The notes beneath the pieces are model-generated. The model did no database searches. It was not told the origin of the DNA and was given only the letters and a program-made list of their open reading frames with translations. From Perkinsus olseni (lineage: Eukaryota), in contig JABANN010000378.1 in the NCBI GenBank assembly GCA_013115125.1, positions 1 through 34,141 of the forward strand: DNA of 34,141 nt, read 5' to 3'. The position numbers and the translations under genes are program-made. Within the stretch, counting starts at the first letter, position 1; each line of letters begins with the position of its first letter. Positions 1-33,419 of this stretch are shown in pieces.

Positions 1-198
1 GAGATACCACACGCGCAAGTATCCGCACGAAGTTTTCCTTACGACGTTTCCCACTTTTGCAACTGACTGGCGAATTCCGATAAGTCGGTCATTGTCGAGT
101 CGGAGCTCTTCCATCCCTGAGTGCCGTCGCTCACCAACTCTTCTGACTCTGAGCGGCACCCGTACTCACTCATTTCGGTACGTTGCTGAATCCGTACT

Positions 199-270
199 TA
201 CCCGTACCGGGGATTGAACCTGCGCCCTACGGGTGATAGCCGAAGATTCTAACCATTACGCTACGGTGGA
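199..270 (-). pseudogene. Degenerate tRNA-Glu/Asp-like sequence (anticodon position reads ATC)
   Basis: Reverse complement is 72 nt: TCCACCGTAGCGTAATGGTTAGAATCTTCGGCTATCACCCGTAGGGCGCAGGTTCAATCCCCGGTACGGGTA. It has A-box-like TAGCGTAATGG, B-box GGTTCAATCCC and anticodon arm TTCGG-CTATCAC-CCGTA, resembling tRNA-Glu. Acceptor, D and T stems contain several mismatches. Confidence 0.7.
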
Positions 271-682
271 AAGGTTGGCGGCCACGGACCTCCATGCGCT
301 GCGACTTCGTAACATGGCATTTTCTCTATCAAGCTGCATGAAATTTCGTCTTCCCTCTCGTGCATGCTGCGCATTTCGCTTTCATCACTCATGGTCTTTC
401 ATACAGCACTACTAGGCTCAATTCCTAGTAACGGCATCTCTTCCCTTCCCGCAGATTAGTGGAACAATATCGGGGTCTCCATAACAAACTGATACGTGTC
501 CCGTCGAAAAATCTCGGTGGATATCGTGTTGAGGTCCGGGTCCGAGTACACTCTTGCCATCGCCAGCGACTAGGCAGGTGGGTTGAGCGGCTTACGAGCA
601 GGCGAGCCTTTTCAGTGGATTCGTACCCCGACATTAATGTTCATTCTTTCCCCATCAGTGACTATCTTAATGCAATCCACGA

Positions 683-1920
683 TTGCCTGGGATGGTTGAA
701 GGGAGTACACTGATAGTGGGCGCTGCGAACAATAATACCGCGAAGGAGCAGAAATGTATTGCCGCCTATATAATCCAACTCTTCGGTCGTACTAGCAGAA
801 ATACTCGCGCTTACGGGAACTCGGCCATTAAGTGTTTTGAAGAATTGCGAAACCAGGAACGGGAACGCCTCGCAAATAATCAAGGGGACCCTGTGAATCG
901 GAACCCTACTAGTGGTGGGCAACAGAATGTTAGAGCTGCCGGCAGTAATAGTGTTGGTGCTGGCGGTAATGAGCCTCGTAATGTTGTGATTGACATCGGG
1001 CGCGTTCCAAGAGAATTGCGGAATGAGGATATTGAAGTTGGCGATGGGATTTCGTATTCATTGCTACAGGATATTATTAACGAGGTTAAGTGGCGTCGGC
1101 CAGCTGGTCGCTCAAAAGATAAATCTGGTACTTTCACATGCAGTATTAAAAAGGCGGGTAAAGGGTCGAAACCAGGGCCAACGTTCCGTAGTAAATGGAA
1201 TGCAATCCGGCACATCGTGAGTACCTACGGGGATAGTTGGAAAGAGTCAGTTGTCCTAGCTGGGGGTGCCAATTGTGAATTCCGGGACGTGGAGTGGGGA
1301 CTCCCAGATGGTATCGTCACCCCTAAGTACAGACAGTCTCGCAATGCCACTGACATAGCCGCCATTCGCCTGGGGCATTATTACATTCGTACTGATCCTA
1401 TCACCTTTTTTTATTTAGGTGATAAATTCGCCCGAAAAGTAGCCCGGGGAGATGGAAACTGTTTATTTTCTTCTGTCGCAATTCATCTGTATGATGAGAA
1501 GGTCTTCAACGTTCTTCGCAGGCACAGCATCAGCGCCGATAGTGCACCCCAATACCTGAGAGACCGATGTTGTGATGAACTGAGCCACGGTGTAACGGAG
1601 GACCACAGTGGTCCGACCACTGGCAGTTATTTCTAGAGAGTGATGGCCCATGGTTGGAGCAACATGGCTTTGGTGACCCACAAAGTTTAACGCTACAACA
1701 ATATGTGGGAATAATGAGGAAGGATAGTACTTGGGGAGGCGGATTGGAGATTTGGGCGTTGAGTATTATACTTAAGCGCCAAATAGTAGTCTTGGTTGAG
1801 AAAGACCCTATCATGCACGTCTTAGCTCACCGGGTAGACACGGGGAACTTTGAAACTTCCATCCCCCTGACGCTTTTCTACAACGGCAATGACCATTATA
1901 ACGCTCTCATTCCTCGTTGA
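683..1920 (+). CDS. OTU-family cysteine protease/deubiquitinase, split across two frames (47-nt intron or frameshift at ~1590-1638)
   Basis: ORF 683-1636 ends with the OTU Cys box ARGDGNCLFSSVA and LRDRCCDEL. ORF 1654-1920 supplies YVGIMRKDSTWGGGLEIWALS and the His box FYNGNDHYNAL. Removing GT...AG 1590-1636 (or 1592-1638) joins the frames. True start codon uncertain. Confidence 0.8.
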
Positions 1921-1956
1921 TAATACATTTTACGCCCATCAGTATCCAGTATAGAC

Positions 1957-2257
1957 ATGCGCTAACCGTCAGGATGTCTGCTATTATTGGCATGCGCTAA
2001 CCCTCAGGATGTCTACTGATATTCAAATGCGCTAACCCTCAGGATGTTTGATAACATTCGAATGCGCTAACCCTCAGGATATCTACTGATATTCAAATGC
2101 GCTAACCCTCAGGATGTTTGATAATATTCGAATGCGCTAACCCTCAGGATGTTTGATAATATTCGAATGCGCTAACCCTCAGGATGTTTAATAATATTCA
2201 GATGCGCTAACCCTCAGGATGTATAATAATATTCAGATGCGCTGAACCACAGTATCC
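1957..2257 (+). repeat. 35-bp minisatellite, 8 full copies plus 1 degenerate copy
   Basis: ATGCGCTAACCCTCAGGATG(T) starts at 1957, 1992, 2027, 2062, 2097, 2132, 2167 and 2202, with a degenerate copy at 2237. The remainder of each unit varies (ctactgatattcaa / ttgataatattcga / ataataatattcag). Confidence 0.97.
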
Positions 2258-2349
2258 TGTTGCGTTTCGAGTGATATGATAAATTAACCTGCCGTTGTAC
2301 TTTGTTGCTTGGACGTACGCACGTTGTAGTTATTCACCCCTTCCGAATA

Positions 2350-3073
2350 ATGTCCCATGCCTCCAAGGAATCCGACGCATCCGTCGAAAATGAAGGCTGT
2401 ATATCTGTGAAAGTCGACAGCATAAAGGCCATAGGAGACGCTGTCGACCGCGCAATGATTACTCTAAGATCCACATTGGAGGCGCTCCAAAGTCTGAAGG
2501 AAGTACTGCCGAGCGCTAGCGCCGAAAGGAGCCCGGAAAAAGGTGATAAATCGGAAGTGAAATGTTATGTGTGTAAAAAACCAGGGCTGCGGTACAACAT
2601 CAGCAGACATTTCCGTGATATGAACCGAAGCTACTACGATAAAGGATTAACAGGTTGGGTGCTGGGCGATGGTAGAATTCACTACACAAGATCCAAGAAT
2701 CAGCGGCAATCCCCGACAGGTGAGACAAAGAGAATCAATAACGAAGCATCGTGCTGCACTTTCAGATACGGCGAGTATTCCTTCAACCAACCCGGCGCGG
2801 ATTGCCGGTAATAACACCCTTACCATGGCAGATAAGGCCGAAGAGCCCGAGTCTGAGAAAGTGGCCCCTTCCACTGAGAGTGTGGGCCCCTCCGCGGAAA
2901 GTGTGACCCCTTCCACTGAGGGTGTAAGCCCACCGGCTGCCGGTGTCGAGCGTGCAACTGGAAGCCGTGATCTTATGTCACGAGGAGAGGATGAACGTGC
3001 TACAGAGCCCCAGCAGAGCAGAAGGCAGGACACCATATCCAAAGCTGAAGTCCCTAACAAGCGACTAAAGTAA
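2350..3073 (+). CDS. Hypothetical protein with degenerate C2H2-like finger; two overlapping frames (2350-2811 and 2669-3073)
   Basis: ATG at 2350, a coiled-coil-like stretch, then CYVCKKPGLRYNISRHFRDMN. The second frame has 7-aa PSTESV-like repeats and ends in basic PNKRLK. How the two frames join is not resolved. Confidence 0.4.
2861..2929 (+). repeat. 21-bp tandem repeat, about 3.3 copies
   Basis: gtggccccttccactgagagt / gtgggcccctccgcggaaagt / gtgaccccttccactgagggt / gtaagc; encodes VAPSTES-VGPSAES-VTPSTEG. Confidence 0.85.
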
Positions 3074-3196
3074 GACAATAACAGAGAATGAAATGTATTA
3101 GATTACTCATTTTTCGCAGGAATATCCAAGAATTAAGCTCCTCTGAAGATGGAGCTATAGTACCAGTGGAAAAGAAGAAGAGACAAACGTAGTATT

Positions 3197-3620
3197 ATGT
3201 GCTTGCAGGACCCCACTGCATCACTCACGGCACGATCTGGTTTGTCGAGGGAGGTGGAGACATTGCAGCGGGCAGAGTATGAGCGGCCTGAGGTGGCCTA
3301 CAACTCCGCTTGTCGCCGACATCAAGTCTTGGCTAGAGTAAACACCCTAACTACCCTCCCTTCCCTCCCTTTCTGCACGAACACCAATTTTCTGGGAGCG
3401 ACTATTCGCGAGTTTTAATTTATGGCCACTGGGGGGAGCTGGTGAGCCAGATGGCTTCAGTGGGAAGTTCGATATTGAAGCTTGACGCGTCCAAAAAAGC
3501 TTCCAAACAAGTACTGGAAGCTGGGTCGTCGGCCTGGCTCGTCAGTGTTTATAACGAAATCGGTGAAGTGCCACTTCAGAAGTGGTGAAGGCGGTTCTCT
3601 GCATTGCTTGGCACTGATCA
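3197..3620 (+). mobile_element. Decayed remnant of a putative DUF6729-type/MULE-like transposase
   Basis: Fragments SLTARSGLS...ETLQRAEYERPEVAYNSAC and, in another frame, SVGSSILKLDASKKASKQVLEAGSSAWLVSVYNEIGEV. From memory these resemble the LTxRSG and ILKxDxxKKxxK...W...VxNExGxV motifs of DUF6729-associated putative transposases. Frameshifts and stops are present. Confidence 0.45.
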
Positions 3621-3858
3621 CTGAGCAGGTACGGTAATAGTAAAATTCGGAGCGACGTGAACCTCTGCGACGCAGAGTCTGCGTCCACGATGCCCAGCAA
3701 GGCGCCCACAAAGCAAGTCGCGATTTAATTCCTAACACGCGGAACAGTAGTACTCAGTTCCAGTTTAATCAGAGCCACCAGAAGAACAAGAGAAAGTGGC
3801 CCAGTAAAGTCGTTCGGGCGGTTCCACGAATAACGCTGTAGGCAGTATTCGTAATCTG

Positions 3859-3995
3859 CACTACTATCCAGTACCGCAATGCGCTACAGTACCATCCAGT
3901 ATCAGTTCTTTATACAGTACCATCCAGTACTGCTATACTGCTATTCCGTGCAGTACCATCCAGTATTCGTAAAGGATGCAGTATAAGGATGCAGT
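3859..3995 (+). repeat. Short dispersed repeat CAGTACCATCCAGTA x4, followed by AAGGATGCAGT x2
   Basis: Copies at 3859 (degenerate), 3887, 3915 and 3951; spacing 28, 28 and 36 nt. Confidence 0.8.
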
Positions 3996-4570
3996 GTCAA
4001 TGACACTGTATCATGTAATACTAGCGAAGCTCACAGTCACATCCATTATTCGTACTGCAAGCTCATCGTATTGTTGATTTTGTAGTTGCCTAAGATTCAT
4101 CTGTCGGTCGGGTTAATAGTTCGGTCCATGGACTCCTATTTTTGTACTTCATTTTTATCATGAGTACCGACCTATCAACCGGGAAATCGTCTCATTGCGA
4201 GAACCGTGACGTGGATGGGGGAGACAAGGATGATGAGGTTGCGGTCGTTCGATCCACAGCTGTGTACCTAATACGCAATTTGTATTAGGCTACTGGCAGC
4301 AGTAGCGGGAGCCAAACAACATCACCGTTAGAGTTCTCAAGCCTGGAACTGATAGATATCCCCCCTCTCAATTTAGCCAGAGCAATTGCCGAGGAGCAGC
4401 GAAATAGTCCCATCATCGCAACCGTCGAAGAAACCTTACCAAGACAACCGGGGAGAGCCACTACATTCTGACCCGTTGGAGTATGCATCATCACTGATGA
4501 TTCATCAGTCTCCGTCTGGTACGTATCGCCGATACGATAGCGTTATACGCTACAGTCGTTACAGAGGAGG

Positions 4571-4599
4571 GGTTGGCATCGTATGATACGATGCCAACC
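4571..4599. repeat. Perfect 14+1+14 palindrome
   Basis: GGTTGGCATCGTAT-G-ATACGATGCCAACC. Confidence 0.95.
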
Positions 4600-4984
4600 T
4601 GATGATACGATTCGTATCGTTCCTCCCAGCCCTGAAGTCAAGCCCGAGTGGCTCAATGACGTGAGTGTCAAGGCTAGCGCAGGTAAGTCTTGGGCAATCT
4701 TGCGCTCGCCCTCTCCGCCCTCTGACTCGCAGGTAACAGCTGTTACTAACGGCTGACATCAAGGAGTACAAAGTACAGTGGAGAAAACTGGGGTCGAGCT
4801 AGCCGCTGCCGGAAAAGATGGCGACTCCTAAGTCCCCAAAAACGACGCGTTATCCGCAGTGACCAACGGCGCGGGTAGTAAAGGACAAACAATCAAGTAA
4901 GGAGAGAGTTGTTGGGATTACTACCTAAGGGCTTTCATACCGGTTTCATACTCTTATAATATAAGACTTATATGTTTGTTCGCG

Positions 4985-5027
4985 GGCTCAGAATCTGAAC
5001 TCAGAATCTGAGTTCAGATTCTGAGCC
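4985..5027. repeat. Perfect 43-nt palindrome (21+1+21)
   Basis: GGCTCAGAATCTGAACTCAGA-A-TCTGAGTTCAGATTCTGAGCC, internally built from TCAGAATCTGA units. Confidence 0.95.
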
Positions 5028-6283
5028 TCAGATGTCAACGAAAAGAAGTGCCACTCAAGCCTAGTACGGTCTGCTTGCCTGCGCTGTCCTTGTGGTGAGC
5101 AAAATTGAACTACCAGACGAGGATGTTGTCTTATTCAATGTATCGGAATATCTTAACAATACTCTGAAGGCATAAAGCCACCCGGCTTCGGAGGCTCAGC
5201 GACGGGACCAATCCTTGAGAGAATATGAGAGACAAGTACAGCAAACCTGGAAACCGAATGCATCTATCAGATGCCATCTGATTCCTTGCTAAAGAATCCT
5301 TGGTGCACACTTTTGGTTTATTTTCACATTTGTGGTCTTCGGGATTCTCTTTCAGACATTATGTTCGGTGATCCATGGGTTGCCGTGGGTGTGGGCAGAG
5401 CCCGAGACTTCTGAAATACCATCGGTTGCCAGGCGACGAAGATGTTGCCGGCGACAACAGTCGACCCCGACAGTCGGAGTCCGACTCCATAGACAGCGAG
5501 AGGGCGGTAGCTCCCGACGAAAATACTGAGCAACGAGGGGAGCAGGTGGAACCCGGCCACAGTACTCAGCCAGAGAGAGTTGGCCCCCAACGACAATTCT
5601 GATCAGGGGCTACCGACGGAAATTCTAACCGAAAGGTAGCTCCCGATGGAAATTCTAGGCAACAAGTGGATCAAGAGAAAATTTATGTTACTTATGGTGA
5701 TATCATTCATCGGATTCGTAGTTGCTGTATTTATACTGGGCATCCTTAGGAGATGAAGTAGAGAATTTCCGATTAGAGTGCGGCATCGATGAATCCCATT
5801 TAATGGCCATCCATTGCATGGGAACATGAGGGTGGTACTGTAAGAGTTGGTAGCAAAATATCGTGGACGAATGGCAATCTCTTTCTTGTCCATGGGTATG
5901 AGTAGTTAGAGTACCACTGAACTGTCGTGCCAATATGCAACGTGACGCCGATGGTGTACGAAGAGGTGGAGTCCCAGGTCCCCCATAATTTATGGGCCCT
6001 AAATTCCCGCTACAGTCGCTGTCAGCCGCAAGGTCTGCACCGGTCTGGAACTGAAAAGCCCTACTCAGCTTTCCGTCGACTCTGGTGAGGTTTCTGCTCT
6101 ATAGCCGTCACCTTGAGGGCCCCTCAATGAGGGGGCGGGATGTTGAGGAGTCATATATTGACTGTAGAGGAGTAGTAAGGGTGCAGTGCACCCGGTGCAC
6201 GATGCCGTAGGGCCTACAGTCTTCAGTGTAGACTGGCCGTTAGCAATTGTCATCATAGGTTTATGTACGCAGTGCGTACTACG

Positions 6284-6330
6284 CACTCATTATCCGAGGT
6301 TCTAGACTTTAGAACCTCTGATAATAAGTG
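6284..6330. repeat. 21-bp inverted repeat (2 mismatches, 5-nt loop)
   Basis: CACTCATTATCCGAGGTTCTA-GACTT-TAGAACCTCTGATAATAAGTG. Confidence 0.9.
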
Positions 6331-6367
6331 GCTACAGGACTCCTCTGAGGAGAGGTCGTTTTCTGAG

Positions 6368-6386
6368 GTAGCCATCTGGCCTCAAG
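6368..6386 (+). other. Spliced-leader relic
   Basis: GTAGCCATCTGGCCTCAAG versus the Perkinsus SL ACCGTAGCCATCT(T)GGCTCAAG: a one-base insertion relative to the 21-nt form. No GT donor follows. Confidence 0.6.
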
Positions 6387-7517
6387 TTGCGATCTTGAGT
6401 TGTGCTGCAGCCTGAAACGGAAGGCGACACCTACAAGGTAACATGAATGATTCGCTGGCATTGAGTTGACAGCTATAAATGACCATCAAAGAAGCGCTCT
6501 AGGACCATATTATATGGTCCATATCTCCATCGCTCACATTATGGTAGTATCATAATCGATGAGCACGGAGTGGTGACCACGAGAGTAACAAGCAACATCG
6601 GTCTCACCGGACTCATGGCGAAAAACCGAAAAGTTCCACGGTGGAACTTCCATCATCAGGGTCAAAACCATGAACTAACTCGGTATGAGACTGATCTGTT
6701 AGTCTGACGAAAGGAGGCGTCGATCTGCGTTCCAAGGTACTGATGAGGTCAGATGAATACCTGATGATCGCGGCGCGATCCCTCTTAGCGGGGACTCGCC
6801 GCCTCCGAGGCGGCCTCCCCGGTAAGTGTCGGCCGCCGACAATGTAGAGTTGCTCAAGCGATTCATAATACAGTCCCATACCGACGATACCCAACACGTA
6901 CACGTGGAGCATAGAATTTCTGTCAGTTCCTGTGACAGAAACTGTGCTAGAGGAGCACATGGAGGGATCTTCCTGGGGGGGCATCTGGCATTGACATCAG
7001 TTGAGTACCGGGCGTAACATCCTTCCCGCTGAGATTTCTCGGAAGAATGTCGTCAACAAGTTCGTAAGTTACAGGAGATCATCCGGAGTACAGGACTTTC
7101 TTCGAGTCAATATCCCTCGGAGGGAGGATTATTCGGGGAATATATCGTAGGAGAGATTCCCTCCTACCGTCGCATGACAACGTTCGAACTAAAGAGTATC
7201 GAGTAGCCTCAGCGAATCCTGTTGCATGCAGAAGCACAACCCGGCGTCGCTAGCTGCAGAGAGCGTAGGACGTACGCCGTAAGGTCAAAGTTGGACCGTC
7301 AAATAGCACGCTCACATTTCGCCCTTGAAAAATGTGAACTAGTCCTGACACGCCGCGTTATCTCGATTGAGTAGCGTCAGAGGGTGGATGCTTGCTGCAG
7401 TCGGTAGCATCAATCATCTACTCTCCCACCGGCCTCCCAGCTTAGTGAATTCCATCAACTAGATTGACTCCAGCGCAACTATCCGTACCGAAAAGTCGCG
7501 CTGTACAGTCAATGCTC

Positions 7518-7532
7518 CCATCTTGGCTCAAG
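7518..7532 (+). other. Spliced-leader relic
   Basis: CCATCTTGGCTCAAG is the exact 3' 15 nt of the 22-nt Perkinsus SL. An ATG follows about 22 nt later, at 7555. Confidence 0.65.
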
Positions 7533-8499
7533 TACAGTTTGAATCGTCATCATCATGAGCGACCAGGTGGGTCGCTCCCGGTGACTCCTCTGAGTCTAGC
7601 TCACACCAATTACCATCAGTCTGTGCCGAAAAACAGTACGCAAGCTGAGAATGGCCCGACTGATACCGTGATGCACTTGGAGAGCTTTAGCTAGTTGTCA
7701 AACTGCTGGAAGAGTAGTTGATTCCGATGTAGCACGGCAACACTGTGTAGTAAAAATCTGAGCCCCGCAGAGCCGGCAGTGCAGGCTGGGTGATGTAACG
7801 CCGCTTTTCTGCGATGAACATCCATGACAACTGGTCCGAGTGGGGAGCCCTCAACAGTTAGTTGTATGATTATAGTCTACTCCGACCATCGTCACCACTC
7901 TGAATCCCAACGGAGGGCGACATAAACACTGACTCATTGCAACACACACTACCACAGGACTCCCGTCCTCATGCCTCCTGGAATGGTATGGCAAGTGCTG
8001 ATTTGAAGTTTCGCGGTACGCTAGCTGGTGCTCTTCATCACAGAATGCCATTGATAGTTGACCAGATTAATGCAAACTTCTGCTTATTGAGTAACTTTAA
8101 ATTCTCGATTCTTGAGTAACTACTGAACTCAAGTCGACTTAATCTAGATATGGTCACAATTGTGTAGGCAGCAATAGCAACATAGCTCAAAGAAAAGAAA
8201 CTCAACAATCATCATATGGATGCAGATAGTACCACGCTCTGCAGGCCGACCCCGTAGTTATTGTCAGTAAGTATAACAGCATCAGCAACCACCGCACGCA
8301 AGTCATCGACGACAAAAACAGCAAGAATCATGAAGTAGCGCCGCAGGACTCAACCCGATAGCAGTATGAGCAAACTGGCACCTTCAGCGTCGCCTCTGCT
8401 ACCTTGTACTAGTACCATAAGCATTATCTATCATTACTACGACTACGCTACTAGGAACATTGAGACCTGCTTCTACGACCTATTATCATTATGATCAAC

Positions 8500-9416
8500 C
8501 AACAAAAGCTAAGAAAAGGGGCAGGAGGTGACTGCCATTAACAAATTCAAGATGCTCGCTACATGTGCCGCGAACGCTCCCGTCACGTCAACATCATCGG
8601 CATCAGACGCTGTGGTGGAACGACTCCGCCAGATCGCCATCGAGATATAGTTCTTGTTGTTGCTGTTATGGGACCAACGAACATAAGCATTCTCAAGAGG
8701 ACATGGCTCACATCTAGTGTTTCTTCATATTGATACACCCACCATCTGGAGAACCAACCTCCTCACGACCTGTGTAGGAAAGGTGTAGGCACCAGTCAAA
8801 GTGTGAGAGAAAAAACTCCCATCATCAAATGACTGAGCAGAGCGCCGGCTTCTCGGTTGCAGAGAGGACAACTCTATAATAACAGAAAAACCAGTGTGGC
8901 ACGCACGCATGTGCTAGATTGTGAACGAATACCCTGTAGTAATGCCATGACCATCAAGACCAAACGCAATCATGGTGTTGAACTATCCGGCCCAACGGAT
9001 TTCGACGAATAATAAATACAGTATCCTTAACTGTGGCTCAGGGTTGCGATACAGCAGGAGATAGAGACGAGCAGAGCAAACAACCACATGACTGATCCAC
9101 GCTGGATCGGTCAAGCATAAACCACCATTTGTCAACCATTTCCACATTAGAACGACGACGGGCCACAACCAGCACCTTACCGACCACTTCGAAGGAGTAA
9201 CCATGGTGTCGTTGAAGAAGTAGCGGTATAGCGGGTGAGCGGTTAACTACATTTGGTATATAGTCTCGAACGATGAGAATCCAAGACGAGGCGACTGAAT
9301 GCAGTCACCAGCGGGTCACTTCAAAGGCATGTGCCACACAGAACCACCATGAACAGTTCCATTGAGCGACCAGGTCCATCACAGGAAGCCACTGGGAGAC
9401 CCGCGTGATCTGCAGC
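8500..9416 (-). CDS. Putative exons of an unidentified multi-exon gene; boundaries uncertain
   Basis: AG/GT-bounded in-phase segments LQITRVSQWLPVMDLVAQWNCSWWFCVAHAFE, LTAHPLYRYFFNDTMVTPSKWS and FNTMIAFGLDGHGITT. Could be a continuation of the gene at 10166-11197. Confidence 0.3.
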
Positions 9417-10165
9417 TATTTACAACAGTAAGACGATTGAGTGACGGGAATAGTGAGTGGTGTAGCAAGGCCCCCCCCGAGCAAATACACTGGGGCGACT
9501 GTGGGAAGGAGTTACAACTTGAGATCAGAAACAGGACTCTCAACGATTGTTGCAGTGACGTATGAGCATCAGCGCATCCGGCGAAAGAGAGCAGACGCAC
9601 AGAAGCGACGGTCGTTCTGAGAATAGTAGTACTATACCAGACGAAGGAGAAGAGGACAACCGATAATAAATAGTACAAAGTAGCAGGAGAAAAGGGTGTG
9701 AGAAACAATCGCTATTGGCGTCGATGGCGAGATGACATACACCAAGTGAAAACGAATGATGGTAGCAGCGGCAAGGAGGGGGATAGCATGCGGCACACGC
9801 CGTGCGGGGTGCTAAACCCCAGGCACAGTCGTTGCTGATAATGCCGATCACAAACGGAGGCCAAGAGCTAATAGGTATAAGTGACACCGATATTCATAGC
9901 ACACAAGGAATAACCGCGAAAACCAATCGGTTAGATTTAGTTATGATGAGAGTATTATAGCCATAGTAGAAGTACGATAGAAGTCATAGCAGCAACAGTT
10001 GCTTGGAGAAGAAGAACCATACGATAATGAGCCTTTCATGACACTAGCCAAGAAAAGGTAAAGCAGCGGCATAGATGACCACAGTAGCGGCCAATAATAG
10101 AGCGCTACCAATGGGAAACCATATACACAACCAATACAATCACAGGCTGCTTGAACACCACCGCT

Positions 10166-14069: not shown

Positions 14070-16093
14070 CTAAAACACCTCACCAAATAACTGGCTGTAG
14101 GTCCTTTTGATCCACTCGTTCTCAATGGTGTAGCTCCCGGGGCCCGGAGTTTCGCTCACAGCGGCAGAGCACCCGTCCGCGAGGCCAAAGGCTTGGAAGC
14201 GACGTGTGGATGATGCGAAACCGATAGTCGCTCCGGTATTTATACCACTACCACATCCCCTCTCTGCCTCAGCAGCACTAGTTCCGTGGCATTCGGGAGC
14301 TTTCCGCGAATAATAGTACCCAGGACCAGGAGAAGAACCTTTGGAAGCATTGCCTTCGAAGAAGCGTGGCTCACGGCTAAGAAAGCCCGACCTGACGGAC
14401 TTCCGCGGGGCCCGATGAAGGAGGGCACCGTTGGATCCTTGTGGTTTGTTCGCATGCTCAGCAGAGCACAAAGCCCTCGTGGTCATGGCCGAACCGAGAG
14501 CTTTATCACTGGACTCTGGCGTTGTTGCATCCTGCATTAAATGGAAGCGCTTCGCTCTCGAGCGAAACGGCGCCGGATGGAAGGATTCCGTGGTCTTGGC
14601 CATTCGATCGCGCTTTCTCCGCGTGGCAAAATCATCGACACATGCACCATCTACATTCCCCGACGTTGCCTTTTGTGCGAGATGTAGGGTGTAAGCCTCA
14701 GCGACCCCAGTCGTGTCGCTCTGCGACCCCCTTGTTCCAAATCTGCTCACTGTTGAACCGAATCTTGTGTGACTAGATTTTGCGCCAACACCTGCCTGGG
14801 AGCCGTGACTAGCATCCCAAAGATTACTCAATACATAATGACCAGGACCGGGTTCCCTCGACTTCGAATCATCAACTCTGTTGGTCAAGCAGTTCGACGA
14901 GAATTTCCAGCCAGCACCCAGGTTCCTGCGACGGTTGGTATTATATTGGCCGGGCCCAGGAGATGACTGCACAGTGTATACGAAGCGGCGGGACATAGAC
15001 CCAAAGCAGGCAGAGCTCGAGCTGGTACAGTGGGGTGACGTATGCGTACCTGGTACATAACAAAGAAATATCGACTAGACTCATAGGCGTGACAGTGAAA
15101 GGAGGGGTGCACAGCCGGCAAGGTACGGAAATGCGCACGCCAGCTGTGATATACACCCCGTTTTGCGATTTGCGGCCACAAGACCCACCTCGTGGTGAAG
15201 CCTCGTAGTGGCCTGGGCCGGGGGTCGGCTGACCTTCCTCGCGTACCTTTCCTCTACTTCTACACGAAGGCTGCGTGAAGACGCTGTGCTGCTTACAAAA
15301 CCTTCGTAACCCGGTTCTCTCTGCGCCAGGATTGTAATAACCTGAGTAGGGCTGTAACTGACTCACTCTCCCCTTGATGCTTACCTGGTCCGGGATATGC
15401 TGTTCCTCCGCGATTGGAACAGATACTTTCCCGCGGGCAAGTGCCAAAAGTGGTCTTGGTCTTCCGATCCTTACGGTTAGACCGAAACTTCATGGATCGG
15501 CTTAGCCCCGACCCACCCTGCAGGGCCGGGGACGGAGAGTCATAGGGGACCAAGTCACCCGTCGGCGACTCGCGGTATCCGTAGCTTTGATGGGGACGAG
15601 GGATGCTGGGCGCATTGTTGCGAATTTCTCCTGATTGAACCGAGGAGCGCGAGCGCCCCTGTGGCACTCTCGGCGAAGACAGCGAACGAATAAGCCCTCC
15701 ACCAAACGCGCGAGGAACTTCGTATTCTCCCGGACCGATGTTGTGTGGAGCCCGCCAGGGACGGAACCTTGGACCATGAGAGTTGAACGGGACCATCCTT
15801 CCTTCATTTTGTCGACGCTGTTTTAGCTCGTCAGCCCAAATACTACTACAGGAGACAGAATCTCGGGACTCCTCGATACTCGGCTCGGCAGAAAGGCCCT
15901 CAGAACATCTTTCCGTAGGGCTTGAACGGACAAACTTTGTCGACATGATGCCGAAAGGAGCATCCACGGCACGCTGCTTCACGGTGTAATCAGCATGCCC
16001 TAGGTATTTGCCAGGCCCTAGAAGAGGGAGCTCCGCAGTAGCCGTATTGACGTCGAAGTTAGAATCACGAGCAGATCGGAACACGAATGCCAT
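14070..16093 (-). CDS. Sperm-tail PG-rich (SHIPPO/ODF3/STPG-like) repeat flagellar protein
   Basis: Multiple PGPGxY repeats (GPGKY, GPGEY, PGPGHY, PGPGQY, PGPGYY, PGPGSY) alternating with F-x-S-x-x-x-RF motifs, across three ORFs that introns can join. Confidence 0.85.
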
Positions 16094-18148: not shown

Positions 18149-19455
18149 TCACTCAGTTCTTATCTTAGTACGTGGACGTCTCTTGTAGACTAGCTTAATA
18201 ATCTCATCGACAGTTTTCTCTACGCTCCAACCTGTGGAATCCATGACAACCTGATGGTATATGCGTGGCAACACCCTGTGAGAATGCTTCTTACTGCTCC
18301 ATCAGCAACCCTCAAGGGATCCAGCTTCCGAGAGAAGTCTGCCTGATCCCTCGCCTTGATATCAGCCAAGGTTCGAGCAAAATCGCCGCCTGAACGAAAT
18401 TCCCGTGGCAACGCGTGAAGACTACATCTGCTATGACCTATCTGCCTCTGACGACGGTGCGCCCTCTCCTCCGCGGAGGCATCCAGATAGACTTTGACCT
18501 CGGCATCGGGGAATACCACCGATCCTAACGAATGCAGTCGCTACTACCGAGGAGAACACTTCTCCAACCTCACTCAGAGCACCTGTATCCCGGCCTTCTA
18601 TAACAACCCCCTCCTTGCTATTCTGAGCCCTATTCCTCAGAGAGCCTACAACAGCAGCTCTGACTTGAGGGATCTGGGCTACCTTAGCGGTGAGTAGAGA
18701 GATCGGAGGTGACCTTATGGCGTCAGTAATGTCCCGGTTACCTGCCATACAAATGGATGCTTCACGCTCATGCCTGCACGCGCGACACTACCGACAAACA
18801 CCCTCTTGTCATCTGTGAAAATGACCTGGTCCAACAATGCTCGTATAGTCTCATTGGCCAGGGATTCAATACCACCCTTGATATCGCCCTCGTTGACGAA
18901 GAGAGCAATACTACGATAGAGGGCTCCACTGTCAAGCTTAGTGAACCTGCTCGGGCGAGATCCCTACGACGGGCATCCCTCCATAAGTCCTCTAAATTAC
19001 CCGCTCAACCTGTCAGCTAGCATCTCAGCAACCGCACTCTTCCCACTCCCAGCTGGACCGTCGATAGCGATAGTAAATGTCTTCTTTCTCTTCGGGATGA
19101 ACCTCTTCCGCAAGGATAAACCAGTAATTACGATACCAGCCATAATGGGAGCCAGCAGCCATGTAGGACTGATATGCAGAGAATACTTAGGCTGTTGCTG
19201 GGCAGCTGATACTACACCTCGAAGTGCACCTGTGGACAGCCATCATCGTGAGATATCTGACCTCATCATCAAACCTGAAGCTGCCGGAGGGAGGTGAGCG
19301 TTCGGCATAGCCGCTGTCTCAGGACTGCGTGAGACTTGCGTGAGTACGAAGCGCTGGAAGTGGGTGATGCACACTATCGCAAGGGCGATAAGAATAATCC
19401 CACCACGGCGACTATGGCGACCCTTCTGGTCTCTGCTAGGCGAGGCGAGAGCCAT
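18149..19455 (-). CDS. cmk: Bacterial-type cytidylate kinase with ~110-aa N-terminal targeting presequence
   Basis: TIAIDGPAGSGKS (P-loop), LDSGALYR, VAQIPQVR, VVIEGRDTG, VFPDAEVKVYLDASAEERAHRR, IKARDQAD...PLRVADGA, MDST. These are the Cmk motifs, interrupted by short introns. Confidence 0.92.
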
Positions 19456-21237: not shown

Positions 21238-22198
21238 TCAATCAGCCATTACGACTCCAGAGTCACTTTTCCGCCATATACCATGCCGTACAGCGACCTC
21301 AGACGTTGTAATGAATCGTCGATGCCGGACATCCTCCTCCAGACAAGCTCGTCCCCAATTGTCGAAATCAATTGGGGATCGAACATCCATGATCGATGTG
21401 GCACCAGAAGTGAACACTACTCCATCACCATGACCAGCCCATCGGAGTATGTAAGCTCCTGAGAACGAATCATACCTCAGGGGGCTGATGCGACCCATAG
21501 GTTTGCTATATGTGGTGACCGGAGTGACGAGCATTACCCCTAGCGAGAATTTCAGGCCGTTGGTCGCCGAGGCTCCTCATGTAGCTGCCGATATCCAACT
21601 CTATTAATAAACCAGCTTTTCGGATCGCTTCGACCAATCCACGCTTCAGAGTGACCTGGAAAGCATCAAGACTGCCCTTTCAACGCTGGAGTGTAGATGG
21701 TCGAGCTACCTCTTGACGCCCAGAGGCTCCGTTTGGATTCAAATCTAGACATATAACATCAACTTGGCTTCGAAGCGTCTCATCACCAAGTAGTGTCCAG
21801 ATAACAGCGTCGCTCTCAGGTCGTATAGCAACAATATCATAACCCTGGAGCCTGTCTAAATGGCACAGGCTCTCAGACCGAGCCATACTCACAGTGACAC
21901 GATCCAGGGCAATGAAGGAGAATCCTCCTTCTTCCATAGAACCCAGGCCAAAGCTGTTCAGCTGCCTGAGCGCACGCTGCTCCTCTTCGGCTATCTGCCC
22001 CGGCAACCTAACCTCAGGTGAAGGCCTATTGATGGCTTTTCGTTTATGCGTAGATACAGCAGACTCTGTGACGTGCCGGTTGAGTGCGCACCCATGGTAA
22101 CCGAGTTCACATAGAGTCGTAAACATATCATGAGTTCCCGCTGTAACCCCTATGCTAATGTCAAAGCTCAGCCGGCACTGGGTTTCACGCCGCACCAT
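21238..22198 (-). CDS. RPP30: RNase P/MRP subunit p30
   Basis: LCELGYHGCALN, DRVTV, YDIVAIRPES, VDVICLDL, LKRGLVEAIRKAGLLIELD, VVFTSGATSIMDVRSPID; three exons. Confidence 0.85.
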
Positions 22199-25481: not shown

Positions 25482-29553
<4,072 letters not shown>

Positions 29554-29711: not shown

Positions 29712-32571
29712 CTACTGCTCATCCTGATGTGTCTCCGTCATAAGGTACGATAATACCAGGACGGAGGTATTGGTGTTGCACTCAGGTTTGTCGATAGCAT
29801 GACCTTGTTGAGGGTACATATACACGTCCACTGAGGGGCAATGCCCATTCACTGATACTGCTTGAGCCCATCTGAGGGTTTTGCAACAATAGTAGCAGGC
29901 GATAATGAAGTCCTATGATAACCTTACCTTAGTCCCCCCATGTGAGGCACCCTTTGATCACTCTCACCGAGTAATAGAAGTACCGGCTTGTCAACATTCT
30001 TGGCAAGAGGAGTGGCAGAGACTTCTCTCATTCTATCGATTTGCTTCCTAGTCAAAGCTTGATAGTCGAAGTCTGGCGCACCCTCCTCCTCGCCAAAGGC
30101 CTCGACAAAGCACCACTCAGGTATGTCCGTAGTGAGACACTGGGAGAGTAAGTCTACTGCTGGGTTCCACAGGATGCCACATTGATACCTGAACGACTCA
30201 TAACTCTTAAGTTCTTGAACTACACCTCCTACCTTCCCCTCACTGATGCATCTGATGACCCCATCAGGTGCCCACACAGGAATCCACCATGGGAGCCACC
30301 AAATACGCTGACACCCTTGACCTCCTTGCCTGACCAGCGCCCGTCAGTTTGTCAATGATGCACTTCGGCGTCACCTGTATCGCGCAGTAGGTCCTGTTCA
30401 GCGTGTACCACTATGTCGTCACAATCAGCTACATCCATGGTCCCAGCATGACCAGGGAGGGCGTTGAGGAAATCCAAACCGAACGACGTGGACCCTCTGA
30501 GGGAAGAGACTGACCAATAACAGAGAAGCGAGGAGCGGCGCCCGCCATGACCTAACCTCACCTATAGTTGGGCAGCACAACAGCAAAGCCCGCCTGAAGG
30601 AGATAGGCCACCTCTCCGACGAATGCATTGGCACTGAAGCTGTGAGGGCCGCCATGCAATCTGGCAACTAATTGCTGATTCCATGCTTTCGGTGTAACTA
30701 GACAACCAGTGCATGACTCGCCTTGTACCAGGGATATTGTAGGGGGTGAGCCACCCTGAACGAACACGAGAAGCTATTAAAGGGGCGCAAGTTGATCGAA
30801 CCTACATTCCATTCTACTGGTGGCACTGCCATAACCTCGATGCAGTCCGATTCAGGATCGGATATACTCACGGACGAGATAGATGGACGATCTACGAGGC
30901 TTTGGGTCATAACAAGAGCCCGGCTGCTCTGGCCATCGCCCCCACCAACATCTAGGAGGGAGCACGAGTCTGACTGGCCATCGGGTGACTCAGGTCGTTT
31001 ACCCGGCCTGACAACGCGTGGCAACGGTCGGAGTGAATACGAGAAGGCCCGAGTGGGAGAGCCCACCATATATTTCTAACTATCTTTCCAGAATTAATAT
31101 CGACCACAAAGGTTCTGTAGGCGCCTTTGCTCTGCGTTGTCAGTATAACTTTATTGTTACCAGAGTTAGGTACCCAACGGATAAGGGAGCGGCTCTCCTC
31201 ATGCAGATGCAAAAACAGGCCTGAGATAGCGGGATCCTAACCGTCATACGACAATCGGTCACAACACGGACCTGTCCAGTTATCATCTCCTGTTATCGGT
31301 ACTTCATGATAGAGCATATTATTCGAGTCCAGAACATACAGGTCCATTGCAGTGATGTGAGTGGAGAAGCGATTCCGAGCCCCAACAAACATTACTCGTT
31401 CACCTAAGGAGTGGAATCGCTGGATAGAGAGCAAATTGAGGAGCAGCTGTATCACCATCTGGTGAAGGGTTGGGACCAATAGCCATGTACAGGCCCTCCG
31501 AGATGAGTTTCGGAGATACGGTACGAGCAGCGAAATCCCCTATGTAATAAATACTGCTAGGACGGTTGAAGCACACTGATAGACCCTCTCTAGCTAATGG
31601 TGTAGGGCCAGTGTGATAGACTGTTAGGAATAGCCCTCTACCCTTCCTACTGAAGGTAGTGAACCTATCGGACACAGGCTGTCAGTGACTGCAAACGATA
31701 AGGACAACCTACCCCAGGGTCTTGTCCTTCATAAATTCAGATCCAAGCCGTTGATTAATATCAATAAACTCGTCATCAGCGAGGGAGTAGATGTAGACGC
31801 ACGGCTCCTTTATACTAGTCAACTTCTCACCAAAGTTGGGATGATATCGAAACCGCGACAAAGGTGTGAGCTCGGCCGTCACATCTCCATCATCACCGCG
31901 ACCTGATCTACTAAGTAGACCAGTAACACAGCAAACCTCAATTGGTTATAACGAATCAACATTCGAGAGCCGACGTGGCATGTTGAGCCTTCTCCCAACG
32001 AACCTGTTCGTTTCTTGGCTTCACTAGTCGTAGGCTCAGTACTCCACCAGGTCTTCGGATACTTCGGAGGACGACGTTCTCCATGTATGAGAACATACGA
32101 TTGACCATACATGACAAGCTCACCGAATGGGCCGCCATTGCGAACCTCCAGGATATCTTTCGGGAGCTGCCTTCTCACCAACTGATGGCCACCTTCATAT
32201 ACCTCCAGATACAAGGTACTGTTGCCTCCGTTAGACGGATCTTTAGACTCGGTTGGACCAGCCGTGATCCGCGCCTCGCATGAATGCCCATCACTGCTGA
32301 AGGCCCATGCCTTCAACCGTTCGTCCACAGGAACATCCGGTAGGTCGAAAGTGCCTCTATCATCAGTACGAAAAACGATATGACGACAGAACTTCCGAGG
32401 TTCGAATTCCTCGAGGTCAGGACGCGAGAACAGAAGAGTTGCTGCTGAAGTGCCGCCGCCGCCGACGAAGTTGGCCGAGACGACCGACGCACTACTAGAC
32501 AGAATGCTCTTAACGATAGCAGCAGCCTTGTTCTCGATCTTAGCTGTTGGTGAAAAACTTTGGAATGGCAT
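29712..32571 (-). CDS. APEH: Acylaminoacyl-peptidase (acylamino-acid-releasing enzyme, peptidase S9C)
   Basis: LHGGPHS, PNYRGSTSFG, GGSHGGFL (catalytic Ser), NPAVDL...TTDIPEWCFVEA, LGESDQRVP (Asp), YPQQGHAID (His). Confidence 0.93.
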
Positions 32572-32715: not shown

Positions 32716-33419
32716 TCATCGGCTAGCATCCAAGATCGCCGCTGGTACGCTTACTTTAACAATCTCATCATCATCAAGCCACAGTGTGACCTGGTCTCCA
32801 TCTGAGAATCGAGTACCATCATAGGATTGATCGAGGAAACCTACTCTTCAGAAACTTGCTCGCTTCTTTAACGTATTTCTGCGGCAATTCCTGCTGGTTG
32901 AACTGATCATCCTGCACGAAGAAAACCTTCTCGTCATTGTCCCAATACAGGATCTGGCAAGCTTGCTTCTCAACCTTCACAACTGAGATTCTCGGAATCA
33001 CCATACCACGCCATGAGCCAGGATACTCACCATTGAACTTAGCTGTCGTACTGCCCTTCCACCTCTCCGGCTTGTTTGAGGTTAAATTAGTATACTCGAG
33101 CTAACAGAGAAGGAGTGGCACAACGATGAGTGGAGAATGGTGACATTATTACCGAAACATGTGCCGCCTGTCTCCCTTGCTTAACTTGCCTAACATTGTT
33201 TATCTCCCAATACTCTGATGGACCATCCTCTTTCCACTTCTGCTTAATGATAGAACCCTTATCGATCTCATTAGCGGGTGTAACGACCGTCGCGAATGCC
33301 CGCGAGCAGGCAACACTCCGTAGAGGGCCGTTCAACCGTACGAGGACCCTGTTAGAGACGCTCGTGATCATACTTGAACTGGGTGCTAAAAACAGGCCTG
33401 GCAGCGTCACACGAGGCAT
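32716..33419 (-). CDS. efp: Elongation factor P-like protein, domains I-II only, with mitochondrial-type presequence
   Basis: Presequence ends ACSRAFAT, then PANEIDKGSII...VKQGRQAAHVSLEYTNL...VEKQACQILYWD...FNQQELP...FLKNGDQVTLWLDDDEIVKVSVP; four exons, stop at 32716-32718. Confidence 0.75.

Follow-up and report, generated by a model that had tools for sequence, protein, structure and literature searches.

What process can write the same palindromic geometry many times over into unrelated sequence? This question is raised by a stretch of the genome of Perkinsus olseni (assembly GCA_013115125.1, contig JABANN010000378.1, positions 1 to 34,141 of the forward strand), whose 34,141 nucleotides (nt) are together called the window here. 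An initial annotation, made from the letters alone, had pointed to a dense field of perfect inverted repeats around a single central base at 3564-7577. We found that these palindromes are mostly parts of one 22-nt unit built on a local 8-mer, and we regard this unit as the probable scar of an excised cut-and-paste transposon.

One-base-centred palindromes are concentrated in one field

We listed all perfect inverted repeats in the field with arms of at least 6 nt and, as the initial annotation had proposed, compared their numbers with those in shuffled sequence (100 dinucleotide shuffles). The results confirmed its claim of a dense field. Between bases 3501 and 7600, 27 inverted repeats with a one-base spacer and arms of at least 7 nt were found, whereas the shuffles averaged 0.26 and never exceeded 2; with arms of at least 6 nt, the count was 32 versus 1.14. 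Even spacers were not enriched, as spacers of 0, 2, 4 and 6 with arms of at least 7 nt gave 1, 1, 2 and 1 repeats in the same bases versus about 0.25 each. Spacers of 3, 5 and 7 were raised there (10, 6 and 7 repeats), and these are partly the inner portions of longer one-base-centred palindromes. Across the remaining 26.5 kb (bases 7601-34141), there was no excess of one-base-centred palindromes with arms of at least 7 nt (2 versus 1.77 expected), which agrees with the earlier impression that the genic 8-34 kb lacks this density.

The maximal arm lengths at a spacer of one base inside the field were 7 nt (17 palindromes), 8 nt (6), 9 nt (2) and at least 10 nt (2), and a fixed arm of 7 nt with chance extension would give this spread. 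The palindrome arms were mutually unrelated in sequence. In every chain of overlapping palindromes, the final base of the first palindrome was the centre of the second. Each palindrome in the initial list with arms of at least 6 nt was recovered at its coordinates, and two items with 5-nt arms (5467-5477 and 6807-6817) fell below our arm filter and outside the recovered set. The list and its range were nevertheless incomplete: 6179-6193 had been overlooked, and 1600-1622 and 2931-2945 lie beyond the range.

The palindromes belong to a 22-nt unit built on an 8-mer

The rule behind the chains was obtained by comparing the window with an allele that is 14 nt shorter. At each unit, [1..7][8'..1'][2..8] takes the place of an 8-mer [1..8], with a net gain of 14 nt; primes denote reverse-complemented positions. 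The resulting 22 nt hold two overlapping 7+1+7 palindromes that share a base, one centred on the complement of the 8-mer's last base and the other on that of its first base. All eight exact chains share this architecture; they start at 1600, 3564, 3663, 4487, 4952, 6113, 6179 and 6265. Six further sites fitted the 22-nt formula with one mismatch (3993, 5260, 5465, 5982, 6504 and 6633) and four with two mismatches (5012, 5282, 6792 and 7283). All fits with 0-2 mismatches were confined to 1.6-7.3 kb, with none in 7601-34141, while a first-order Markov model of the window predicted 0, 0 and 0.175 fits per whole window at 0, 1 and 2 mismatches. Most of the palindromes that the initial annotation had given as single fit the 22-nt form with one or two mismatches and are thus older copies of it.

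A scan for partial forms detected only one in the field (6800-6819), with short forms elsewhere at chance level, so that the full form predominates. A wider search for paired one-base-centred palindromes that fit a single 8-mer recovered all eight exact sites and three irregular ones. Each irregular site corresponded to one 8-mer, and its centres were the complements of the end bases of that 8-mer.

To follow the individual structures, which are called scars below, contigs from four public runs (X1, X7, X8 and X9) were aligned to positions 1-10000 of the window. X1 may be the run from which the window was assembled. X7 comes from a separate study from X1, carries no flag as a possible source, and our guess is that it is an RNA run. 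Indels relative to the window were taken from 12 of the 26 indel rows, and the X8 and X9 indel findings, apart from one gain deduced by gap arithmetic, are among these. The structures are as follows.

1600-1621: exact 22-nt scar; frameshifts the OTU-protease reading frame; present in X7, X8 and X9 records with 0 gaps
2931-2945: orphan 7+1+7 palindrome, beyond the initially annotated range
3564-3585: exact 22-nt scar; also in X8/X9, the deleted letters of the X9 record being fully explained by 3370 and 3664
3663-3684: exact 22-nt scar; 14 nt missing at 3664 in X8 and X9, at full depth
3993-4014: 22-nt scar with 1 mismatch, initially listed as the single palindrome 3992-4008; in X8 and X9, whose sole gap there is 8 nt at 3928
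4487-4508: exact 22-nt scar; 14 nt missing at 4488 in X8 and X9
4522-4536: orphan 7+1+7 palindrome, differing from the 22-nt form by 3 mismatches
4571-4618: split scar with one 8-mer target; centres 4585 and 4611, left arms 14 nt, 4-nt filler, right arms 7 nt
4952-4973: exact 22-nt scar; 14 nt missing at 4953 in X8 and X9
4985-5033: compound scar of a 43-nt and a 13-nt palindrome; one 8-mer accounts for the outer pair 4993/5026; X8/X9 are 40 nt shorter here
5260-5281: 22-nt scar with 1 mismatch; in X8 (piece 5027-5315, 0 gaps)
5282-5303: candidate old scar, 2 mismatches
5465-5486: 22-nt scar with 1 mismatch; in X8 (0 gaps)
5982-6003: 22-nt scar with 1 mismatch; in X9 (0 gaps)
6113-6134: exact 22-nt scar
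6179-6200: exact 22-nt scar
6265-6286: exact 22-nt scar
6504-6525: 22-nt scar with 1 mismatch
6633-6654: 22-nt scar with 1 mismatch
6766-6780: orphan 7+1+7 palindrome
6800-6819: 20-nt form, the 22-nt structure minus 2 nt of the inverted copy
6827-6841: orphan 7+1+7 palindrome
7113-7164: split scar with one 8-mer target; centres 7119 and 7157, about 30 nt of filler, arm lengths x=6 and y=2
7283-7304: candidate old scar, 2 mismatches, the final one before the field ends

The split scar with centres 4585 and 4611 accounts jointly for a 29-nt and a 15-nt palindrome. The 43-nt palindrome could not be derived by the simple 8-mer rule, neither in up to 3 steps nor by inverse collapse. Read by hand, it may have formed in two events: an imperfect one that added 13 nt, and then another that acted on the regenerated 8-mer, carried a palindromic extension of 21 nt and added 27 nt. 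The two gains total 40 nt, the amount missing at this palindrome in X8/X9.

At 4262-4284 there is a further inverted repeat with 8-nt arms and a 7-nt spacer, which can be read as a one-base-centred palindrome with 11-nt arms and two substitutions. The X8/X9 contigs part from the window at 4267, inside this repeat.

The units differ between strains in 14-nt steps

Of the words sampled from 3564-7577, 50% or more occurred in each of 9 run rows from 3 studies. The X1 and X7 contigs showed 0 differences from the window wherever their pieces were listed, and these pieces together span all structures treated here. X8 and X9, which have the same organism label, differed from the window by about 1.3% substitutions (22 in 1648 letters, for example). 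Both lacked, at full depth, exactly 14 letters at 3664, 4488 and 4953, which are three of the initially listed chains, indicating that each chain was acquired or lost in one 14-nt step. Strain comparison had been named in the initial annotation as a way of checking the palindromes, and by this comparison they vary as clean 14-nt units. One of the processes it had considered, iterative fold-back synthesis, found no support, since the chains arise in one step (exactly 14 nt missing at all three sites) and since 8/8 exact chains have the fixed 22-nt architecture on an 8-mer.

X8/X9 also lacked 40 letters between 4986 and 5027, at the 43-nt palindrome. The structures at 1600, 3993, 5260, 5465 and 5982 were present in X8/X9 (gapless records), as was the one at 3564 (gap arithmetic). 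Among the exact scars whose X8/X9 state was readable, 3 of 5 were absent, while none of the 4 readable one-mismatch scars was. This pattern fits an age structure in which the youngest scars differ between strains.

The regular 15-nt size of the palindromes initially suggested a k-mer effect. However, an origin by sequencing, amplification or assembly artefact, the alternative that had been raised together with the palindromes, is scarcely credible. The field is held by independently built contigs from public runs of three studies, in X7 with 0 differences, and the 14-nt alleles in X8 and X9 are clean and at full depth. On the evidence of the contigs, presence in X1 and X7 together with these clean alleles excludes an assembly artefact.

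X8/X9 further lacked 8 letters at 3928. A perfect 8-bp tandem duplication lies at about 3921-3936, with one unit fewer in X8/X9, beside four copies of a 17-nt motif (3857-3965, spacings 28, 28 and 36 nt). We rejected this duplication as a hairpin scar, as its junction bases are not complemented; it may reflect ordinary slippage.

The scar at 1600 splits an OTU-protease reading frame

Two open frames in different phases, 671-1633 and 1579-1917, meet at the scar at 1600-1621. Deletion of 1607-1620 fused both into a single frame of 411 codons. In the unaltered pieces, the upstream frame matched positions 1-39 of the OTU-protease profile (E = 0.0019) and the downstream frame matched positions 55-100 (E = 1.1e-6). 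Because its removal restores the 411-codon frame and the OTU profile is divided around it, the 14 nt at 1607-1620 are a derived insertion that splits a coding domain. This scar is common to all four runs. Unless splicing removes the scar, the OTU-like cysteine protease frame at 671-1917 (plus strand) is probably a pseudogene. The frame is present in an RNA-like X7 contig.

Transposon excision would account for the unit

In our view, each unit is probably the donor-site scar of a cut-and-paste transposon, either of the hAT type or of another family that makes 8-bp duplications and forms hairpins on the flanking DNA. We infer that such a transposon repeatedly inserted into and excised from this gene-free stretch, leaving about 20 scars of differing ages, and the process is best read as still active between strains of this organism. 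The initial annotation had proposed hairpin sealing and opening at DNA breaks, which comes near to this explanation; for the breaks themselves, the best explanation is excision of a transposon with an 8-bp target duplication.

The integration and hairpin steps of the proposed mechanism follow what is known of such families, while opening, annealing and fill-in are deduced from the product. The element would integrate at the 8-mer [1..8] and duplicate it. On excision, each flank would be sealed as a hairpin whose tip is the complement of the duplicated base adjoining the element, so that the left hairpin strand would read 1..7-8'-7'..1' and the right one 8'..2'-1-2..8. The host would open both hairpins at points off the tip. 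The unfolded 3' tails, ending 8'..1' and 1..8, would be complementary over 8 nt and could anneal, after which the gaps would be filled. The product would be constant, [1..7][8'..1'][2..8], with 22 bp, a net gain of 14 bp and two 7+1+7 palindromes sharing a base. One form would dominate because overlapping tails would anneal to the same 22-nt product wherever the nicks fall. Tails joined without annealing may have given the longer palindromes with filler at 4571-4618, 4985-5033 and 7113-7164.

Several observations are consistent with this mechanism. The 8-bp target duplication is retained in the eight exact and six one-mismatch structures, all built on an 8-mer, and the 14-nt-shorter strain allele is a single 8-mer. 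The palindrome centres 8' and 1' are the complements of the duplicated bases next to the element ends, a feature reported for hAT footprints. The hAT excision signature is matched because the product holds three copies of the 8-mer information, with the inner end bases present only as complements. A one-base hairpin tip leads one to expect enrichment at odd spacers only, as observed. In Hermes, the first nick is offset by one nucleotide. The target bases give at most a weak hint of the hAT preference, whose consensus is nTnnnnAn: position 2 was T or position 7 was A in 15 of 36 cases versus 25% expected (p = 0.02), with A at position 2 in only 2 of 36 after symmetrising.

Evidence against excision and rival explanations

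A number of results weigh against the excision reading. A search of the window for pairs of terminal inverted repeats flanked by an 8-bp duplication yielded only 2 weak, chance-like pairs, no transposase domain was found among its 146 open frames of at least 75 codons, and no element occupied any scar 8-mer among the listed contig rows of the four runs. The heterogeneous spectrum of short indels expected of hAT footprints was not seen, as one long form dominates. The local density is extreme, with about 18 scars in 5.7 kb versus none in the remaining 26.5 kb. Open frames of at least 100 codons leave about 11.9 kb of this scar-free part uncovered, which clearly includes introns (in the split cytidylate kinase and MCM Pfam matches), so that coding constraint alone is insufficient to explain the contrast. 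Mismatch classes from 0 to 3 imply long-lasting activity at one locus. Finally, X8/X9 seem to carry a private 14-letter gain within 3210-3702: in two of their records, the window span exceeds the record span by 1 letter with 29 gap letters, which by gap arithmetic means 15 deleted and 14 inserted letters. Short-range hopping, a preferred landing zone, or selective loss of lineages with the element inside genes are possible causes of the clustering. Collapsing the recognised scars in 3-7.7 kb revealed no hidden long reading frame, and the field is non-coding either way.

Such points lend some weight to a mutational process without a transposon, which we consider possible but doubtful. It could be a hairpin-forming nuclease at the locus, for example a domesticated transposase, or a replication or repair polymerase making a short template switch, in which it turns back along the opposite strand over 8 nt and then returns; both would yield the flip-duplication directly. 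The window shows neither element nor transposase, and the events, being confined to one locus, uniform, long-recurring and seemingly present in both strain lineages, resemble a locus-bound activity; short template switches reportedly create perfect inverted repeats. However, three copies of the 8-mer information with end bases present only as complements are simply explained by a prior duplication, and in our own reasoning no single nuclease reaction on an unduplicated 8-mer led us to the product. The exact events are without pre-existing microhomology beyond chance that could prime a template switch, and a fixed length of 8 in 8/8 exact and 6/6 one-mismatch events is not expected from polymerase slippage. 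We entertain only tentatively that the scars are something other than passive debris of an ordinary transposon, and that a hairpin-making activity bound to this locus and still at work (for example a domesticated hAT-like nuclease, or an element homing to this stretch) repeatedly breaks the same approximately 6 kb in both lineages, with a single deterministic repair writing a 14-nt "flip-duplication". If true, this would amount to a new mutational signature in a protist, one easy to recognise, and would offer a natural record of how DNA hairpins are opened and joined there.

It is very improbable that the palindromes are functional and under selection, as protein-binding sites or as RNA hairpins in a long untranslated region, with the 14-nt differences arising as deletions in the other strain. 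Part of the field may indeed be transcribed, as 6236-7899 lies within an X7 contig with a spliced junction. Slippage between 7-8-nt direct repeats could also remove exactly 14 nt, and the strain data alone leave the polarity unproven at three sites. Against this, the palindrome sequences are mutually unrelated, older copies decay by substitution (1, 2 and 3 mismatches), one copy destroys the OTU reading frame, and deletion leaves the origin of the 22-nt structure unaccounted for. The earlier suggestion of a process rather than a repeat family is supported, each inserted sequence being copied from its own site. A dispersed repeat family, including miniature inverted-repeat transposable elements, was rejected, since the arms are unrelated, no repeat family joins the sites, and the field has single-copy depth in X1.

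Other features of the window

The left end of the window (1-668), especially about 185-265, is high-copy, with a summed contig depth of about 6,400-8,800 in X1 versus about 90-100 in single-copy parts. A stretch within it resembles a tRNA on the minus strand but is not called by ARAGORN, and the region is possibly a tRNA-derived repeat. Neither Rfam (gathering thresholds) nor ARAGORN returned anything in the window. Two tandem arrays follow, one at 1915-2299 (35-nt units, about 8 registers) and one at 2840-2944 (21-nt units, 4 copies, inside an open frame). A piece of about 40 nt at 3201-3240 has raised depth (bin 3007-3340, about 1,400 in X1) and is flanked on either side by loose ends in each of the four runs, much like a short dispersed repeat. 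The X7 depth bin 6013-6346 reaches about 10,800 versus 5-170 around it, possibly through partial match of a very abundant contig.

At 7899-7953, an X7 contig skips 53 nt with the ends CT..AC, which are GT..AG on the minus strand and denote a spliced intron in a minus-strand transcript. This contig extends down to 6236 and covers the right third of the field. Split Pfam matches on the minus strand between 14.0 and 33.5 kb mark intron-rich genes. A 334-aa frame had only distant hits, to SHIPPO-repeat proteins at no more than 37% identity. The split Pfam matches are as follows.

14073-15074, minus strand: SHIPPO repeat
18223-19242, minus strand: cytidylate kinase
21241-22198, minus strand: RNase P p30
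26332-28209, minus strand: MCM
29927-30343, minus strand: peptidase S9
32822-33100, minus strand: EF-P-like OB domain

Implications of the excision reading

If excision is the correct explanation, the window holds a natural trail of about 20 transposon visits, with every excision repaired to the same 22-bp product. The formula [1..7][8'..1'][2..8], with its gain of 14 nt, would then be a searchable signature that counts past cut-and-paste activity genome-wide without any remaining element, and the decay of its copies would date the events. It also suggests that this organism opens transposase-made hairpins far off the tip and joins them by annealing rather than by blunt end joining. The scars break genes, as in the OTU frame at 1600, and make up a sizeable share of strain differences: about 4 kb here contains at least 4 indels of this kind, in addition to about 1.3% substitutions. 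The reason for their packing into one 6-kb stretch may lie in local hopping, a preferred landing zone or a nuclease specific to this locus.

Comparison with known systems

We found no earlier account of scars with a uniform "target, inverted target, target" form, or of a trail like this one, in a literature search that left out most subscription journals and supplements. Among the partial resemblances, short template switches also yield a perfect inverted repeat from local sequence in one step, appearing as a clustered change or indel between close relatives. Template switches vary in length and switch points and are often seeded by nearby microhomology. Here the length was fixed at 8 and the one-base turning geometry was identical in 14/14 exact or one-mismatch events, which does not fit a short template switch. 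P-element footprints retain terminal element sequence, so that their scars share sequence. They were rejected as a model, because each 14-nt insertion copies its local 8-mer and is unrelated to the insertions at other sites.

According to the accessible part of PMC7789003, introner elements of Amoebophrya have inverted repeats of 8-20 nt at the two intron ends, with the intron between them. Like the field, they represent many short inverted repeats of unrelated sequence in the genome of a myzozoan protist. As described in that part, however, the repeats are neither one-base-centred palindromes nor 14-nt gains, and we rejected the analogy.

Unlike V(D)J loci, the field is without recombination signal sequences. 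Transib and RAG duplicate 5 bp, and P nucleotides in V(D)J recombination are usually 1-4 nt long. The available sections of PMC5499845 report that hAT, MULE, Transib and RAG form hairpins on the flanking DNA which are opened by host enzymes, that MULEs duplicate 8-10 bp, and that excision of Muta1 in yeast is more than 90% precise. On this partial account, the field resembles V(D)J P nucleotides, Transib, RAG and the MULE Muta1 in having a flank-sealed hairpin, off-centre opening by the host, and flank-templated palindromic addition.

The closest comparison is with hAT elements, which, like P elements, make duplications of about 8 bp (PMC3706591, in the part available). Excision footprints of Ac/Ds in plants, S. 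cerevisiae and C. albicans are covered in PMC5873905, which cites Lazarow 2012, Yu 2004 and Huefner 2011. In its accessible sections, palindromic insertions centre on the complement of the base adjoining each transposon end, arms reach up to 20 nt in yeast, and joints with microhomology amount to 85-100% in Arabidopsis and 88-89% in yeast. The same sections and those of PMC3499496 describe hAT footprints as heterogeneous and mostly short. As far as these sources go, Ac/Ds sets consist of many short variants, while the field has one product, a full inverted 8-mer between two 7-nt partial copies. The field also differs in holding about 20 scars within 6 kb of natural sequence, with no element in view. 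In the same sources, Ac/Ds footprints nevertheless share with the units described here a retained 8-bp duplication, palindromes on complemented end bases and the possibility of long arms, and the microhomology joints proposed here are usual in Ac/Ds.

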